Shown: positions 14,965 to 28,939, counted from the whole stretch's first letter. The stretch: DNA of 62,481 bases, filler included, from Anaerolineae bacterium (GCA_029262755.1; 6 parts of 6 records of this genome joined end to end with filler, not necessarily neighbours in it); one strand, 5' to 3'. Notes: generated by a model from the letters alone, not told the origin. A program made the numbers and translations.

Positions 14965-15744
14965 TCACCCGCCATACCACCGTCGCGGTAGCCACGGCGC
15001 GCGAACTCCGTAGTCGGCGACGGTCACCGGCCACAAGAGCCACACGAGGCCGAGCAGGGGTTGGAAGAGCGGGAAGTAGCCGTAGTCCGCCCCAAAGTGA
15101 CGCCACACCGTGCTGCCGATCAACCCTGGTTCGAGCACGGAGATCGTTCCCACGACCAGCGTCAGCGCCGTCTCGACGCTGAGCAGTGCAACGCTCGTCC
15201 ACCACGCCCACGGCCGACGCACCGCGAAGCCGATCGTAGCGCCCAAGTACAGGAGTGAAGCGAGGAGAGAGAGCCCCGCCCCCGTCTGCCACACCACGCC
15301 GTCTTTCAAGAGCAGCCGGTAGAGCGCCCGGACGCCGGTGGAAAGCGCGAGGACGGGATAGCTCACGGCCAACACGTAGCGCGCCACGCTTGCCAAGTCC
15401 GACAGGATGCCCGCGGTCGGCGTATCATGGCCGTCGGCGGCAGTGACGGCGGGATCGTCCGGGCCACCAAGGTCAGTGGCTGCGACGGGGACGTCCGTCA
15501 CGTCGTGATCGCTCCGCGCGATCCGATCGGCCACGGGAACCGTATTGGCCACCGGAGCACGTTCGTCCGCCGAAGGATCGACGGCCCGGGAAGGGCCGTC
15601 CGTCGCGACCACGGCGCCCTCCCGTCTCGCAGCGGCCCGCGCCGTTCGATCGCCGGCCGGGTCAGCGGTGGCACCGCGACCCTCGCGCGCCTTGCTCGCA
15701 CCCTGCCCCTGCTTCTGCTCTTGCTTCCGCTTGGAATCGGCCAT
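14965..15744 (-). CDS. Hypothetical membrane protein (disordered N-terminus, about 4 C-terminal TM helices)
   Basis: Hydrophobic helices and a [19 protein letters not shown] segment. An extended -10 box TGGTATTAT lies 8 nt before ATG 15744. Confidence 0.7.
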
Positions 15745-15869
15745 GGCCCGCGATAATACCATCGGGGGGTCGCCAACATACGGCGCGAAATCGCACCTGC
15801 CGGTCCGATTTGCGTTCCGCCGGCGTGCGGACTGGCACGCCGGCGGCGTCGCCATCATCATTCCCTGCC

Positions 15870-16421
15870 ATGCTTCAAGAACTGCTAAAGAGCCTTCAAG
15901 AGTTTCTGTACCAGTTGGGCGATCGGCTGGCCGGCGGGCCGACGCTAACCCCGCAGGCTGCCAGCTTCATCGGCGTCGGCGCGCTCGTGCTTGCCGTATC
16001 GACCCTCGCCGTTGCGCTGATCGCGCTGCGGCGTGCAACCCGGATGCGCCGGCACTACGAGACGTTGATGACCGGCTCCGGCGGCTCGCGCTTGAGCGAC
16101 GCGCTCGAGCACGTGATCGGCCGGCTGGACGCCGTCGAGCAGCGCGCCTCCAAGGTCGGGCACCACGCACGCAGCATCGACGTCGGCCTCGAGTCCGCCG
16201 TCCAGCGCGTGCGCCTCGAACGGTATGACGCTTCGGGTGACGGCGCGCCGAACAGCTTCTCGCTAGCCCTGCTCGACGCCCACGACAACGGCATCGTCCT
16301 GACCGCCTTGGCGGGTAGGGACCGCACCCGTGTCTACGCCAAGCCTATACAGGCGGGTCAAAGCGAGCACGGTCTCTCGGAGGAGGAACAACGCGCCTTG
16401 CGCGGCGCGGACGCCTCCTAA
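15870..16421 (+). CDS. DUF4446-family membrane protein
   Basis: TM helix and coiled coil, then RYDA...[28 protein letters not shown]...LSEEE. Confidence 0.85.
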
Positions 16422-16541
16422 GGGCCGTTCGAGCGCCTGAAGCTCGGGTTCGCGTCCCGCTCGGCAGCGAGTAGGCTCGCTGCGTTCCGCATGTCCCGGC
16501 AAACAGCCCGTACTCTTAAACCCCGGTGGCCCGGTAACACC

Positions 16542-16576
16542 AGTGGCCCCGGCGAATTGAATTCGCCGGGGCCACT
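16542..16576. repeat. Perfect 35-bp palindrome with 17-bp arms
   Basis: AGTGGCCCCGGCGAATT-G-AATTCGCCGGGGCCACT, read directly. Confidence 0.95.
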
Positions 16577-16780
16577 CGGTCCCCCCACCGTACGGTGACG
16601 CTTGGCACGCGAGGTGCGGGCGCCGCCGGTAGACATCTATTGGTTGAACGCACGGCAACTTGGTGCGTTGAGCAACCGGTTCACCCGATCGCGAGAAGTT
16701 CTCACGGGACGCTCATCCCGTCGCTTCGCACCTACTAACGCAAGTTGCGCGACGGAAGATACGGCCCCCGGCACCGAGTG
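16573..16780. ncRNA. Putative structured ncRNA, ~208-nt rod (6S-like candidate; strand unresolved)
   Basis: Nested complementary pairs CACTCGGT/ACCGAGTG, CCGTA/TACGG, AGGTGCG/CGCACCT, GGTTG/CAACC and AACGCAC/GTGCGTT, plus a side hairpin ACGGGA/TCCCGT. Lies in a gap with no credible ORF. Confidence 0.5.
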
Positions 16781-16884
16781 ATCTCTATGTGTTCATCCAA
16801 CACCTCACCCAATGCGCGCCCGTCGCCCACCCGACGCTTACCCCACGCACCCTCGCCGACCGCGGAATTCTGCCTTCAGTGCGG

Positions 16885-16914
16885 TTGACCAGCCATTTCG
16901 CGGCGCCCTATACT
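16885..16914 (+). promoter_or_regulatory. Sigma70-type promoter of the M23-bactofilin operon
   Basis: TTGACC-N18-TATACT upstream of the AGGAG SD and GTG 17008. Confidence 0.7.
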
Positions 16915-17007
16915 GCCTTCGCCCCTTCTGATTCCATCGCACCCATTGGCGGCGTGTGTCCGCCGATCACCGCTACCGCCCCGCCGCTCCGGAGTAGGAG
17001 ACGCACC

Positions 17008-17997
17008 GTGGCGACGCGTTGGTCCAAACCGACCGACACTGCATGGACCATCCGCCTGCCGCGCGCCCTGGCGCTGCTGCTGGCGCTCGGCGCGTTGGCC
17101 GCTCTGGTCGGCGTCGGCGTGCTCTACGAGGAAAATCGCGCCCTGCGCGCGGATCTGGCCGAGTTGGCCGAAGAAACCGAGGTGCTGCGGGAACGAGAGC
17201 GCTTGCTGACCTCGACGATCGCGGAGCAACACGGCGAGATCCAGGGCCATCTGGACGACGCGGAGGCGCTCCGCTTCCGCCTCGAGACCGTGGAGCTCCA
17301 GCTCGACGGGGTCGAACGCATCGGCCGGGAGTTGCGCGTCGAGTTCGGGTTGGCCGATGCTCCGGCCAGCGGCGCCCCGCGCGGTGGCCCCTTCGATGGT
17401 GCTGTGTCGCTCACCGATCGCGGCGACTTGGCGCGCCGAAGGCTGGCCGTCGGTCTTTCCGAGCTGCTCGGCCTACGCGATATGATGCGCGCCCGCCATG
17501 CAGCGGAAGCCGCGGCCGCCGCACGCGACGCAGCCGGCGACCCCCCCGCAGCCGCCGTCATGCCTGTGCCCCACGTCGCCGAGATTCCCGCCGGCTGGCC
17601 GGTGCCCAACGTCACCCAATTGAGCTCGGGCTACGGCTGGCGCATCTTCCGCGGCCGACCGAACTTCCACACCGGGCTCGACATCCCGCTTCCTCACGGC
17701 ACACAAGTCCGCGCTACGGGGGCGGGCACGGTAGTCGGCGCCGGATGGCAACCCGGCTACGGCCATAGCGTGCTCTTGCAGCATGCAGACGGTTACAATA
17801 CGCTCTACGCGCACTTATCCGGGCCACTGGTCCGGGTGGGGGAAGAAGTGCGTAGCCAGGATCCGATCGGGCTCTCGGGAAGCTCGGGGAACTCGACCGG
17901 ACCTCACTTGCACTACGAAATCTGGCGGGACGGCACTTTGGTCGACCCGACGGACCTGACCGGCGCATCGAGCGCCGGCGGGAACGCTGGGCGCTAG
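17008..17997 (+). CDS. Membrane-anchored M23 family peptidoglycan endopeptidase
   Basis: Short N-tail, TM helix, coiled coil, and LytM motifs HTGLD, YAHLS and GSSGNSTGPHLHYE. Confidence 0.92.
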   Translation: MATRWSKPTDTAWTIRLPRALALLLALGALAALVGVGVLYEENRALRADLAELAEETEVLRERERLLTSTIAEQHGEIQGHLDDAEALRFRLETVELQLDGVERIGRELRVEFGLADAPASGAPRGGPFDGAVSLTDRGDLARRRLAVGLSELLGLRDMMRARHAAEAAAAARDAAGDPPAAAVMPVPHVAEIPAGWPVPNVTQLSSGYGWRIFRGRPNFHTGLDIPLPHGTQVRATGAGTVVGAGWQPGYGHSVLLQHADGYNTLYAHLSGPLVRVGEEVRSQDPIGLSGSSGNSTGPHLHYEIWRDGTLVDPTDLTGASSAGGNAGR

Positions 17998-18026
17998 CGC
18001 GCCGCCGGTCAAGGAGAAGACAGTTT

Positions 18027-19370
18027 ATGGGCCTCTTCGGTCTTACACGTCGCGAGACGCCGACGGATAGCCTCGAAAACGTCATCGGACGCTCCACCTC
18101 GCTCCACGGCATCATCAAGAGTGACGGCGGAGCACGCATCGAAGGTCGCTTCGAGGGTCGCATCGAGGTCGCCGGCAACGTGGTCGTCGGCGAGGAAGGC
18201 ATCGTGGTGGGCGATATCTTCGCCCGCGACGTGACCATCGGCGGCACCGTCGAGGGCAACATCGAGGGCGCGGGCCGGCTCGAGATCCTCACTTCGGGCA
18301 AGGTTTTCGGCGACGTAACGGCCGCAGCGATCATGATCGACGAGGGCGGTCTCTTCGAGGGCATCAGCCGCATGCGCGGCGCCGCACGCAAGGCGCTCCC
18401 GGCTCCCATGGCTCCGGCACCGGTCGTCGACGACGTCGTGATCGACCTTAAGCGTCGCTCCGACGGCGTCAAGCGCACCGATGGCACAAAGAACGGCAAG
18501 GCGAACGGCAAGGCTGCACACCAACCGGACGTCGAGACAGGCGACGTCATCCTCGACCTCGGCGCCACGGTGGCCTCCCCGACGAAACCGACGACATCCA
18601 CGACATCCACGACATCGACGGACAGATCGGCGGCAGACACACCGACCACCGTCGCCAAGGCTGCCCCGACCGCGGCACCGGCGTCCTCGTCCTCCTCCTC
18701 CTCCTCCTCGTCCTCGTTACCGGCTTCGCCGGAGCCGTCGCCGTCCGCGGCAGACCGCTCAGACCACGGACTAGCGTCCAACATCGACGCAGCCACTGAG
18801 TCTGTTGCATCAACCGTGCCGGTTTCTCCAACGGCAACCACGAACACGTCAACCGATGCCGCCGCCGCGCAGCCGGCTGCCGGCAAGGCATCCACCAAAG
18901 CGGCCGCGCCTCGAATTTCACGCGCGGCCGCGCAACTGTGTGAGCAACAGGACCTCGACCCCCACGCCATCACCGGCACGGGCAGCGGCGGCCTGATCAC
19001 GAAGCTCGACGTACGACGCGCCATCGCCGCGCGCAAGAACGGCGCGCGCAAGAACGGAACGGGCGCTTCGAGCAACGCGCCTTCCGTCGCGCGCACGACC
19101 GATGACCGCCCGGCGGACAAGGGCGGCAACGCGGATGACGAGATCCAGATCGATATTGCGCCGGACGCGGGGCGCGCGCCGAAGACGCTCGACTTCAGCG
19201 CGCTCAACATCGAAGCCGTGATCCCGGACACGAGCCAGACGGCGCGCACCGTGGATTCCGACGACGCGGACGCTTCAAAGGAAGCGTCGAAGGCGTCGTC
19301 CTCGAACGCGACCTCGTCGCGCGCCGCAAAGCGCTCCTCCAACGACGCCACCCGCCGCAAGCGTCGCTAG
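18027..19370 (+). CDS. Bactofilin with a long disordered C-terminus containing an E3-binding (PSBD) domain
   Basis: Beta-helical bactofilin domain in residues ~15-115 (NVIGRSTSLHGII..DGGARIEG...IDEGGLFEG). ISRAAAQLCEQQDLDPHAITGTGSGGLITKLDV starts at residue 297. AAGGAG SD. Confidence 0.88.
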   Translation: MGLFGLTRRETPTDSLENVIGRSTSLHGIIKSDGGARIEGRFEGRIEVAGNVVVGEEGIVVGDIFARDVTIGGTVEGNIEGAGRLEILTSGKVFGDVTAAAIMIDEGGLFEGISRMRGAARKALPAPMAPAPVVDDVVIDLKRRSDGVKRTDGTKNGKANGKAAHQPDVETGDVILDLGATVASPTKPTTSTTSTTSTDRSAADTPTTVAKAAPTAAPASSSSSSSSSSSLPASPEPSPSAADRSDHGLASNIDAATESVASTVPVSPTATTNTSTDAAAAQPAAGKASTKAAAPRISRAAAQLCEQQDLDPHAITGTGSGGLITKLDVRRAIAARKNGARKNGTGASSNAPSVARTTDDRPADKGGNADDEIQIDIAPDAGRAPKTLDFSALNIEAVIPDTSQTARTVDSDDADASKEASKASSSNATSSRAAKRSSNDATRRKRR

Positions 19371-19380
19371 CGCCGCACCG

Positions 19381-19950
19381 ATGAACGATCGTCCAACACC
19401 GGACCGCGCCGCAGCCTGGGATCTCGTCACCTCCTACACCGAGAGCGACTCGCTGCGCCGGCACATGCTCGCCGTCGAGGCCGCGATGCGCGCCTACGCG
19501 AGCCACTGGGACGAGGACGTCGAGACCTGGGGCAACGTCGGCCTGCTGCACGACTTCGACTACGAGCGCTTCCCCGAAGAGCACCCGGAGTCCGGGCAGC
19601 CGATCCTCGCCGAGCACGGTTGGCCCGCCGAGGTCTGCCGCGCAGTCCTGTCCCACGCCCAACGCGAGGACACCCCGCGCCTCAGCCGCATGGAAAAGGC
19701 GCTCCACGCCTGCGACGACGTCACGGGCCTGATCATCGCCTGCGCGTTGGTCCGCCCGGATAAGGATCTACGCTCCGTAAAGCCCAAGAGCGTGCGCAAG
19801 AAGTGGAAGATCCGCGCCTTCGCCGCCGGCGTGGACCGCGACGAGGTCGACCGCGCCTGCGCCGACCTGGGCGTGGACCGCGACGAGCACCTGGAAACGG
19901 TGCTGGCCGCGATGCAGGGCGCGGCCGAGGAACTGGGGCTGGCGGGCTAG
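19381..19950 (+). CDS. HD-superfamily (HDIG-type) phosphohydrolase
   Basis: LRRHMLAVEAAM, GLLHDFDYE, AVLSHA and FAAGVDR. Confidence 0.88.
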   Translation: MNDRPTPDRAAAWDLVTSYTESDSLRRHMLAVEAAMRAYASHWDEDVETWGNVGLLHDFDYERFPEEHPESGQPILAEHGWPAEVCRAVLSHAQREDTPRLSRMEKALHACDDVTGLIIACALVRPDKDLRSVKPKSVRKKWKIRAFAAGVDRDEVDRACADLGVDRDEHLETVLAAMQGAAEELGLAG

Positions 19951-20043
19951 GGCTGGCAGCAGGCGGGAACTGCACGGTCGGCGCACGTATGGAAGACGTG
20001 CATCGGGGCACCGCACTTTTCGAATCTCGGCCGAGCTTTGATA

Positions 20044-20076
20044 GTATACGCTACGTTATAATAACGGAGCGTATAC
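20044..20076 (+). promoter_or_regulatory. AT-rich palindrome covering the TATAAT -10 box and the SD of the ATPase gene (operator candidate)
   Basis: GTATACGCT-A-CGTTAT-A-ATAACG-G-AGCGTATAC. TATAAT at 20057-20062 and GGAG at 20066-20069. Confidence 0.65.
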
Positions 20077-20079
20077 AAC

Positions 20080-21483
20080 GTGTTTGTTGATCGACGACGT
20101 GAGTTGAAGCGTCTGGACGAGGCCTGGGCCTCGGATCAGGCCGAACTGTGGGTGGTGTACGGTAGGCGGCGTGTAGGAAAAACCGCCCTGCTGCGCCACA
20201 TGTTGGCCGACCGCCCTCACGTGTATTGGGTCGCAACACTTAGCTCCGACGACATGCTGCGTCGCGACTTCGCGGATGCGCTGGCTCGGAAGCCGGACGG
20301 CGACGGCACGCCGGTCGGCGTCCACTTCGACTCGTGGGAGGCCGGTTTCCTTGCCGCCGGCAGGATGGCGCAGGAGCGCCGGGTGGCGTTGGTGATCGAC
20401 GAGTATCCCTACCTCGTCGATAGCGCGGCCGGTGTGTCATCGGTGCTTCAGAAAGTATGGGACGAGCATTTGATGCACGGTAGGCTCATGCTGATACTCT
20501 GCGGTTCCTCGATGGGGATGATGGAGCGGGAAACCCTCGACTATGGCGCGCCACTCTACGGTCGTCGGACGGGCCATCTCAAGCTCGGCCCTCTACCCGC
20601 CGGGGCAGTGAAAGCGTTTGCTCCGCGCTGGAATCCTGGGGAGCATGTCACTGCCTTTGCCACGTTGGGCGGGATTCCCGCCTACTTGCGCCTATTGAAC
20701 GATGGCGAGTCTCTAATCAACAATTTGGACCGGCACGTCTTGGATCCGGATGGGTTGTTGCATCGGGAGCCGGAATTCTTGCTGCGACAAGAACTTCAAG
20801 ATCCGCGCAACTATTTCGCGGTGCTGCAGGCTGTAGCCGGCGGTCGCACGCGCCTCAACGACATCGCCCAAGCTGTGGGCATGCCGGGCACGTCAGCCAA
20901 TCGCTATCTTACGACCCTACGCGAGCTGGGTTTGGTCGAACGAAGCGTCCCGGTCACGGAGACCCGTCCCGCCAAGAGTCGTCGCGGCATCTATCGGGTA
21001 TCGGACCCCTTCCTCCGGTTCTGGTTTCGTTTCGTCGGCCCTCGGCGGACCCTCCTCGAGGCGGGCCGAACCGCCGCGGTGCGTCGCGAGGTGGAAGAGG
21101 GCTTGCCGCAATTCGTCGGTCCGACGTTTGAGCAGCTATGCAGGGACTGGCTCGCCGCGGCCCAAGACGTCGGTGGAGAGGTGGGGCCGCTTGAGCGAAT
21201 CGGTTCCTGGTGGCAACGCGACCACGAGATCGACGTGGTCGGCGTGGGTCGAGAGAGCCTCGTTGTCGGCGAATGCAAGTGGAGCGTCCGGCCGATCGGC
21301 GTGTCCGTGCTCGCCGATTTGGAGAGGGCCTCCGAGCCTTTGACGGCAAAGGAACAACCGATGCGGGTACGCCAACTGCTCTTCTCTCGCTCGGGCTTCA
21401 CCCCGGCGCTGACGCGCCTCGCTGCATCGCGCGACGACCTTCGGCTTGTGGACTTGGACGAGGTTCTCGATGGACTCGCATGA
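20080..21483 (+). CDS. Archaeal-type AAA ATPase with wHTH and C-terminal DUF234 (PD-(D/E)XK-like) domain
   Basis: FVDRRREL, Walker A YGRRRVGKT, Walker B VIDEYPYL, LCGSS, DPFLRFWFRFV, GPTFEQ and EIDVV...GECKW. Confidence 0.9.
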   Translation: MFVDRRRELKRLDEAWASDQAELWVVYGRRRVGKTALLRHMLADRPHVYWVATLSSDDMLRRDFADALARKPDGDGTPVGVHFDSWEAGFLAAGRMAQERRVALVIDEYPYLVDSAAGVSSVLQKVWDEHLMHGRLMLILCGSSMGMMERETLDYGAPLYGRRTGHLKLGPLPAGAVKAFAPRWNPGEHVTAFATLGGIPAYLRLLNDGESLINNLDRHVLDPDGLLHREPEFLLRQELQDPRNYFAVLQAVAGGRTRLNDIAQAVGMPGTSANRYLTTLRELGLVERSVPVTETRPAKSRRGIYRVSDPFLRFWFRFVGPRRTLLEAGRTAAVRREVEEGLPQFVGPTFEQLCRDWLAAAQDVGGEVGPLERIGSWWQRDHEIDVVGVGRESLVVGECKWSVRPIGVSVLADLERASEPLTAKEQPMRVRQLLFSRSGFTPALTRLAASRDDLRLVDLDEVLDGLA

Positions 21484-28839: not shown

Positions 28840-28939
28840 NNNNNNNNNNNNNNNNNNNNNNNNNNNNNNNNNNNNNNNNNNNNTTAATTAATTAANNNNN
28901 NNNNNNNNNNNNNNNNNNNNNNNNNNNNNNNNNNNNNNN
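28840..28939. other. Artificial contig spacer
   Basis: N44-TTAATTAATTAA-N44; the genes on both sides are truncated. Confidence 0.99.

Follow-up and report, generated by a model that had tools for sequence, protein, structure and literature searches.

A bactofilin gene at positions 18027..19370 (+) of a 62,481-nucleotide stretch of DNA from an Anaerolineae bacterium genome (GCA_029262755.1), hereafter the window, encodes a protein of 447 aa which carries, in its long C-terminal tail, a peripheral subunit-binding domain (PSBD; Pfam E3_binding) of the kind through which the E2 subunits of 2-oxoacid dehydrogenases bind E1 and E3. The same arrangement was found in two metagenomic orthologs. Overall, the PSBD probably serves as a client-docking module on a scaffold of bactofilin and M23 peptidase.

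The module comprises residues 295-336 (18909..19034, +), as delimited from Pfam, AlphaFold2 (AF2), Foldseek and ortholog conservation. The E3_binding model (PF02817) matched residues 300-330 of the protein with 23.9 bits (E 5e-5; cut-off 23.7), and when the whole genome was scanned with this model the site scored 27.5 bits, above the cut-off; the only other matches in the genome to exceed it were three PSBDs, which lie in two genuine E2 genes. The same island is present in both known orthologs, P0002 (351 aa; 32.0 bits) and P0003 (426 aa; 30.2 bits). An initial annotation of the window had placed the domain at 18915 to ~19023, which corresponds to I297-A332, and both this position and the residue string it gave were correct.

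In the full-length AF2 model, built on a 27-sequence family alignment with zero E2 sequences, residues 291-340 had a pLDDT (the local distance difference test value that AF2 predicts) of 89-96 with helices at 299-307 and 326-344, and almost all other parts outside the beta-helix were below 50. A domain-only AF2 model, whose alignment included the PSBDs of the genome's E2 proteins, had a mean pLDDT of 82.9. When this model was searched against the PDB with Foldseek, the best 32 matches were all PSBDs of E2 or the E3-binding protein E3BP, with TM-scores (by target) of 0.8-0.9 and a root mean square deviation (rmsd) of 0.6-1.8 A (for example 2eq7_C; TM 0.90, rmsd 0.6 A). With a domain of only ~40 residues, the Foldseek E-values stay weak, none being better than 5e-3. 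A PDB sequence search with the module also returned PSBDs, the best being 7qjm_A (E 5.6e-5, chain residues 35-75), and the module is 30-40% identical to solved PSBDs. The fold positions S298, A301, L304, L310, D311, I315, G317, T318, G319, G322, I324, D328 and V329 are kept in all three carriers. As recurrence, the conserved island, the AF2 fold and the PSBD-only structural matches agree, the marginal E3_binding match is a real domain; a Pfam match 0.2 bits above threshold was thus borne out, and it was the orthologs and the fold prediction that settled it.

The other half of the architecture is equally clear. The bactofilin beta-helical polymerisation domain, residues 19-112 (18081..18362, +), scored 80.5 bits against the Pfam model Bactofilin (PF04519; cut-off 27.9 bits), and those of the orthologs 85.7 and 84.5 bits. 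Residues 16-116 are all beta in the full-length AF2 model (pLDDT ~97) and form a right-handed beta-helical core, and the solved bactofilins 2n3d_A and 6ria_A were matched by ortholog P0002 in a sequence search. With both Pfam models matched and the PSBD fold present, the combination of bactofilin and E3-binding domain proposed in the initial annotation holds. Neither a lipoyl domain nor a 2-oxoacid_dh catalytic domain was found in the 447-aa protein (Pfam, E up to 1), and since the true E2s of this genome show both, the protein is not an E2.

The PSBD is flanked by two disordered linkers. Linker 1, residues 126-294 (18402..18908, +), is rich in S/T/A/P and simple repeats with pLDDT mostly <50; its composition is as first described, and its length is ~170 residues. 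Linker 2, residues 337-385 (19035..19181, +), was delimited from the AF2 model, the ortholog alignment and tandem repeats. Across the three carriers identity is 79-93% in the bactofilin core and 52-73% in the PSBD island, compared with 22-39% and many gaps in linker 1 and 18-39%, again gap-rich, when both linkers are considered. These figures bear on another reading, in which a permissive tail has captured the module as a passenger, neutral or decaying, that has no function of its own. Such a reading would fit a tail that is hypervariable and repeat-prone, the existence of three known carriers only, and a window copy that sits at the Pfam threshold on a long branch. However, the island is far better kept than either flank, the fold residues are retained in 3/3 copies and the fold is predicted with confidence; moreover the orthologs are ~80% identical in the core, so there was ample time for decay. 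A passenger is therefore unlikely, and because the PSBD is real, folded and maintained, it is likely to have a function.

The distribution of the fusion is narrow. A profile of the three proteins searched against 1.84 billion cluster representatives gave 12,180 matches at E up to 1e-3, and among the best 150 of these only the three carriers scored >500 bits, the next match being at 212.7 bits. E3_binding was detected by Pfam in 0/28 next-best or long bactofilins drawn from the same best 150 of 12,180 matches; independent bactofilin-PSBD fusions may occur among distant bactofilins beyond those 28. In the 27-sequence alignment the PSBD is an insertion unique to the three carriers, inside the hypervariable linker; what the other members have in common is the M-G-L-F-type start, the core, a conserved C-terminal motif and a basic end. 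Bactofilin loci from 16 relatives were also compared, of which 12 share the family of the window's genome, 3 its order and 1 its class; the search had covered 40 relatives, with zero others of the window's genus among them. A PSBD match was present in 0/16 of these loci (5.3-9.5 kb each, E up to 10), in a search where the window copy scores 76 bits. Scans of genome contigs and metagenome contigs yielded nothing but distant bactofilins (1 and 3 loci, respectively), region-restricted protein searches returned only the query itself, or P0002 and P0003 plus one E2 fragment, and a search of the ESM Atlas for the fusion gave no usable match. By these comparisons the PSBD is no general property of bactofilins, but a rare, recent and lineage-specific addition to an older family of them.

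The genome has two E2 genes with which the module could be compared: one in an E1beta-E2-E3 operon on contig C52 (E2a, one PSBD; E3 gene at C52:1957-3360), and a stand-alone two-PSBD E2 acyltransferase at C122:1780-3336 (L034), which is conserved family- and order-wide (orthologs L077-L090). Apart from itself, the bactofilin PSBD is matched best within the genome by the first of the two PSBDs in the C122 E2 (45% over 44 aa, E 1.3e-7), and the mean identity of the bactofilin PSBDs is 37-46% to this first-PSBD class and 33-39% to the other two classes. A recent intragenomic duplication was rejected, as blastn showed no DNA-level similarity to either E2 gene. In a weakly resolved PSBD tree of 46 domains (43 from E2, 3 from bactofilin; 41 columns) the three bactofilin PSBDs group together as a single clade (99/95 support) on a long stem of 0.53, and thus have a single origin. 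As donor, the E2a clade (96/93) and also the second-PSBD clade (96/94) are excluded by the tree; the first-PSBD class makes up its unresolved backbone, and the closeness of the bactofilin PSBD to this class is read from identity only.

The two PSBDs of the C122-type E2 differ consistently from each other, the residue after the Gly-rich turn being always Gln in the first (14/14) and always Arg in the second. This suggests that the two may divide labour, e.g. one for E1 and one for E3.

Whether the module has kept the clients of its ancestors can be judged from its surface. The residues of the E. coli E2p PSBD that contact E1/E3 are given in a passage of PMC10849603 as H327, P330, R333, R337 and R354. 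In our alignment, position 299 is Pro in 42/43 E2 PSBDs and K or R in 3/3 bactofilin copies, and position 305 is Ala in 41/43 and C, V or I, respectively. Position 323, after the G-x-G-x-x-G turn, is Arg in 29/43 and Gln in 14/43 E2 PSBDs, but M or L in the bactofilin PSBDs; position 330, after D-V, is Glu in 28/43 (Arg in 1/43) and has been charge-reversed to Arg. The helix-1 Arg at position 303, present in 39/43 E2 PSBDs, is kept in P0002 and P0003 and is Gln in the window copy. We take E. coli P330 to be column 299 and R354 to be column 323, and with this presumed register the E1/E3-contact residues were not found to be conserved in the bactofilin PSBDs of the 46-domain alignment. Net charge was also considered as an argument against E3 binding and was dropped, since the window module has +1 and the genome's E2 PSBDs 0 to +1; the modules of P0002 and P0003 have +5 and +4.

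If the module nevertheless binds an E3 dimer or E1, it would tether parts of a 2-oxoacid dehydrogenase to the bactofilin/M23 scaffold. The only established PSBD activities, according to passages of PMC10849603, are E1/E3 binding and, in E. coli, dimerisation. The candidates that the genome encodes are the C52 operon and the two-PSBD E2 of C122; the first PSBD of the latter, the closest match within the genome, likewise is without the canonical Arg, and Arg303 is retained in two of the three copies. The E1alpha subunit of pyruvate dehydrogenase has reportedly been found to influence the placement of the division ring in Bacillus subtilis, which would lend interest to a tether of this kind. On the other side stand the replaced Pro299, the absence of both Arg and Gln at 323 in 3/3 copies, the reversed charge at 330, the loss of Arg303 from the window copy, the long stem branch, and a neighbourhood that has no dehydrogenase gene (no 2-oxoacid dehydrogenase gene was found by Pfam on this contig). 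The lost Arg at 323 does not by itself exclude E1/E3 binding, because the first-PSBD class has Gln there in 14/14 cases. On balance, retention of the ancestral clients is possible but doubtful. The shared and retained surface changes, together with the long stem, suggest instead a shift of specificity, and a docking module whose client or mode of binding has changed is a serious possibility, if somewhat short of an even chance. A complex prediction of the module (residues 287-348) with two E3 copies, run without control pairs, gave a score of 0.03 (mark 0.32) and speaks neither for nor against E3 binding.

A further reading is that filaments are cross-linked or regulated by the PSBD, through contacts with other copies of itself, with the core of the bactofilin or with its C-terminal motif. 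In E. coli E2p, hydrophobic helix residues hold the PSBD in a stable homodimer (passages of PMC10849603), and polymers would be bundled if a module that dimerises sat on a flexible tether. Yet dimerisation is described in those passages only for gammaproteobacterial E2p, no dimer interface was seen in this analysis, and the rest of the family works without the module, so that we consider this reading quite improbable. Readings beyond those named here have very little likelihood.

The reading we prefer, of a client-docking module, can be put as follows. The host protein would be a membrane-associated, self-polymerising bactofilin belonging to an old DUF4446-M23-bactofilin-HD morphogenetic cluster. 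In one narrow lineage, represented by this genome and the two metagenomic orthologs, an E2-type PSBD appears to have been inserted into the long disordered tail, between the polymer core and the family-wide C-terminal motif. The polymer would then display many 40-residue two-helix modules on ~170-residue tethers at the cytoplasmic face of the membrane, and this array could act as a multivalent docking site that brings a soluble client to where the M23 peptidase remodels the wall. The simplest role for a small tethered binding domain that recurs along a membrane-bound polymer is to dock a soluble client. That E3 or E1 dimers, specifically, are kept by the bactofilin polymer at the place on the membrane at which the wall is opened by the M23 endopeptidase seems rather unlikely.

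Several points weigh against the docking reading as a whole. Polymerisation, membrane binding and M23 recruitment are, like docking, predicted properties, and the first three are drawn from family membership and synteny. The carriers of the module amount to three sequences, and DNA and gene context come from one of them only, on a contig where no gene points to a client. Inclusion of the genome's E2 PSBDs in the alignment for the domain-only AF2 model biases it toward a PSBD-like outcome. The window copy is also the most diverged of the three, with a terminal branch of 0.58 compared with 0 and 0.29 and an atypical composition, and this divergence, together with a Pfam score at threshold, could equally mean relaxed constraint.

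The ends of the protein are those of its family. The N-terminal M-G-L-F-G...R-R peptide (18027..18053, +) is a candidate membrane-targeting sequence, with M1 and F4 nearly invariant in 27 family members. It is alike in character, though not identical, to the hydrophobic-plus-basic consensus for bactofilin membrane-targeting sequences given in a passage of PMC12448750, and presumably binds the membrane. The C-terminal short motif L-D...L-N/D-I-E-P/A-V-I-P-D, residues 386-401 (19182..19229, +), was recognised from its family-wide conservation: across the 27 aligned family members I395 never varies, and conservation reaches 90% or more at D389, I399 and P400. It is kept with or without a PSBD (P0002-P0030, L060-L071), is 56-75% identical among the three carriers and has a pLDDT of ~68 (AF2). 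Acidic and hydrophobic in character, it resembles a short linear motif for interaction with a partner. The low-complexity tail that follows (19230..19367, +) ends in the basic cluster R-R-K-R-R, and basic ends recur in most family members.

Repeats are also evident at the nucleotide level. Linker 1 contains a (TCC)x10.7 poly-Ser array at 18684-18715 as well as a 9-nt x3.3 repeat, and a perfect 15-nt tandem duplication at 19028-19057, repeating a five-residue unit, stands directly after the PSBD. The bactofilin tail evolves through replication slippage.

The window consists of several contigs joined by paired runs of 44 N, taken from an assembly of 428 contigs that is 84% complete. Positions 1-28839 are one contig (C84), and arguments from neighbourhood are valid only within it, because from position 28840 on the window is made up of other, concatenated contigs. 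Within this contig the gene belongs to a conserved cluster in the order DUF4446, M23 peptidase, bactofilin and HD, beside carA. The DUF4446 gene (15810..16421, +; Pfam DUF4446 121.6 bits) is the first of the cluster, and in the relatives it is found upstream of M23 or bactofilin in 10/16 loci. An LmdC-like M23 (LytM) endopeptidase gene follows (16789..17997, +; Peptidase_M23 108.7 bits, residues 293-387), so that the neighbouring cell-wall remodelling enzyme assumed in the initial annotation does exist; it lies directly upstream of the bactofilin gene in 15/16 relatives' loci, and in 12/12 of those from the same family. Its product has a short cytoplasmic segment, a transmembrane helix, a long coiled coil and the M23 domain, and the translation shows H-x-x-x-D and H-x-H motifs and gives partial matches to MepM/ShyA/DipM-like NCBIfam models. 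Relatives align only from ~residue 51 onward, and translation probably starts downstream of 16789. In the alignment the short cytoplasmic segment ahead of the transmembrane helix is conserved among relatives.

Downstream, a small gene with an HD/HDIG domain (19381..19950, +; Pfam HD 30.1 bits) begins 10 nt past the bactofilin stop; its TIGR00277 HDIG score of 24.9 bits is under the cut-off of 27.6. The ESM Atlas cluster nearest to the HD protein consists mostly of Chloroflexota, a weak pointer to the taxonomy. An HD gene is downstream of bactofilin in 8/16 loci, all eight being among the 12 of the same family. The M23 stop (17997) and the bactofilin start (18027) are separated by a 29-nt gap. 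From these gaps of only 29 nt and 10 nt we infer that the genes form an operon. In 15500-20300, a scan for promoters and terminators found none that exceeded the shuffles. Further on, at 20080-21483 (+), is a gene with ATPase_2, HTH and DUF234 domains and a G+C content of 0.61, compared with 0.68-0.72 around it. It is without a counterpart in 16/16 relatives' loci (in L068 and L070 a BNR-repeat gene directly follows HD), and is probably an insertion in this genome.

The bactofilin reading frame runs for 447 aa plus a stop from an ATG start, as supported by Pfam and the homolog alignment; in the 27-sequence alignment the N-terminus aligns with homologs from residue 1. A Shine-Dalgarno-like sequence, AAGGAGAAG, can be read at 18011..18019 (+), 7 nt ahead of the ATG. 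An antisense open reading frame (ORF) of 548 aa, 17714-19360(-), spans the whole bactofilin gene and was rejected as a high-GC shadow ORF; it has no Pfam match, and its G+C at third codon positions is 0.76 compared with 0.81 in the sense frame. A naive longest-ORF caller would choose this shadow ORF over the bactofilin gene. Elsewhere in the genome there is a second, weak bactofilin-like match at C251:31398-31688 (-) (34% identity across residues 29-129 of the query, E 3.1e-4). The match is part of an open frame of 683 aa, which may encode a further long protein with a bactofilin domain. Beside the two-PSBD E2, at C122:351-1694 (L034), a single open frame, likewise of 447 aa, combines the two Fe/Mn superoxide dismutase domains with AhpC/TSA (peroxiredoxin), and is either a peroxiredoxin-superoxide dismutase fusion or two genes merged by the ORF call.

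Client recruitment by bactofilins is poorly understood, and here a known docking domain of 40 residues has been grafted into a bactofilin tail and then kept. If the ancestral clients were retained, 2-oxoacid dehydrogenases would be linked to a wall-remodelling scaffold; if the client has changed, this would be a clean example of a PSBD that has evolved a new partner. Were the tethering of E3 or E1 true, central carbon and redox metabolism would be physically coupled to the control of cell shape, and a single domain-capture event would have produced a cytoskeleton-anchored metabolic enzyme in a bacterium.

No paper that joins a bactofilin with a peripheral subunit-binding domain or E3 binding turned up in full-text literature searches, which cover few subscription journals, and main-text passages of the bactofilin papers PMC10945521 and PMC12448750 mention no such fusion; the architecture thus appears, as was first supposed, not to have been described. 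The setting, in contrast, is familiar. Adjacency of bactofilin and M23 genes is reported for 226 species in a passage of PMC10945521, which also states that the cytoplasmic tail of LmdC binds BacA. As in the BacA-LmdC systems of Hyphomonas neptunium and Rhodospirillum rubrum and in CcmA-Csd1/Csd2 of Helicobacter pylori, the bactofilin gene lies beside one for a bitopic M23 peptidase with a transmembrane helix and a coiled coil. It differs from these in that the cluster adds DUF4446 and HD genes, that M23 binding is here a prediction, and that the tail is ~330 residues long with a folded PSBD and a C-terminal motif, whereas the described tails are short and unstructured. According to passages of PMC12448750, bactofilin tails are as a rule short, show little conservation and can often be dispensed with. 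What is new here is the PSBD; the host protein itself is an ordinary member of the known bactofilin/M23 morphogenetic module.

A precedent for client binding by a long bactofilin tail is BacP of Myxococcus xanthus, which binds the soluble client PadC through an exceptionally long disordered C-terminal tail (passages of PMC12448750). However, the tail of BacP binds through a short linear motif rich in lysine and valine, and the client belongs to the chromosome-segregation machinery, whereas here there is a folded domain in a tail of unrelated sequence. Like the PSBDs of E2 and E3BP, this domain passes the Pfam cut-off, has the same two-helix fold, in which a loop with a short helical turn connects parallel helices, and is placed between flexible Ala/Pro-rich linkers; unlike those of E2, it is carried by a cytoskeletal polymer without lipoyl or catalytic domains, and surface positions that are otherwise fixed in the lineage have been replaced. 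It also resembles the PSBD of PDB 7qjm, 'alpha/beta-hydrolase (202)' (cited in PMC9772341), in being found outside a classical E2 and in having a hydrophobic residue in place of Arg after the Gly turn; there, the host is an enzyme with an N-terminal PSBD, and here it is a bactofilin with the PSBD in its tail.

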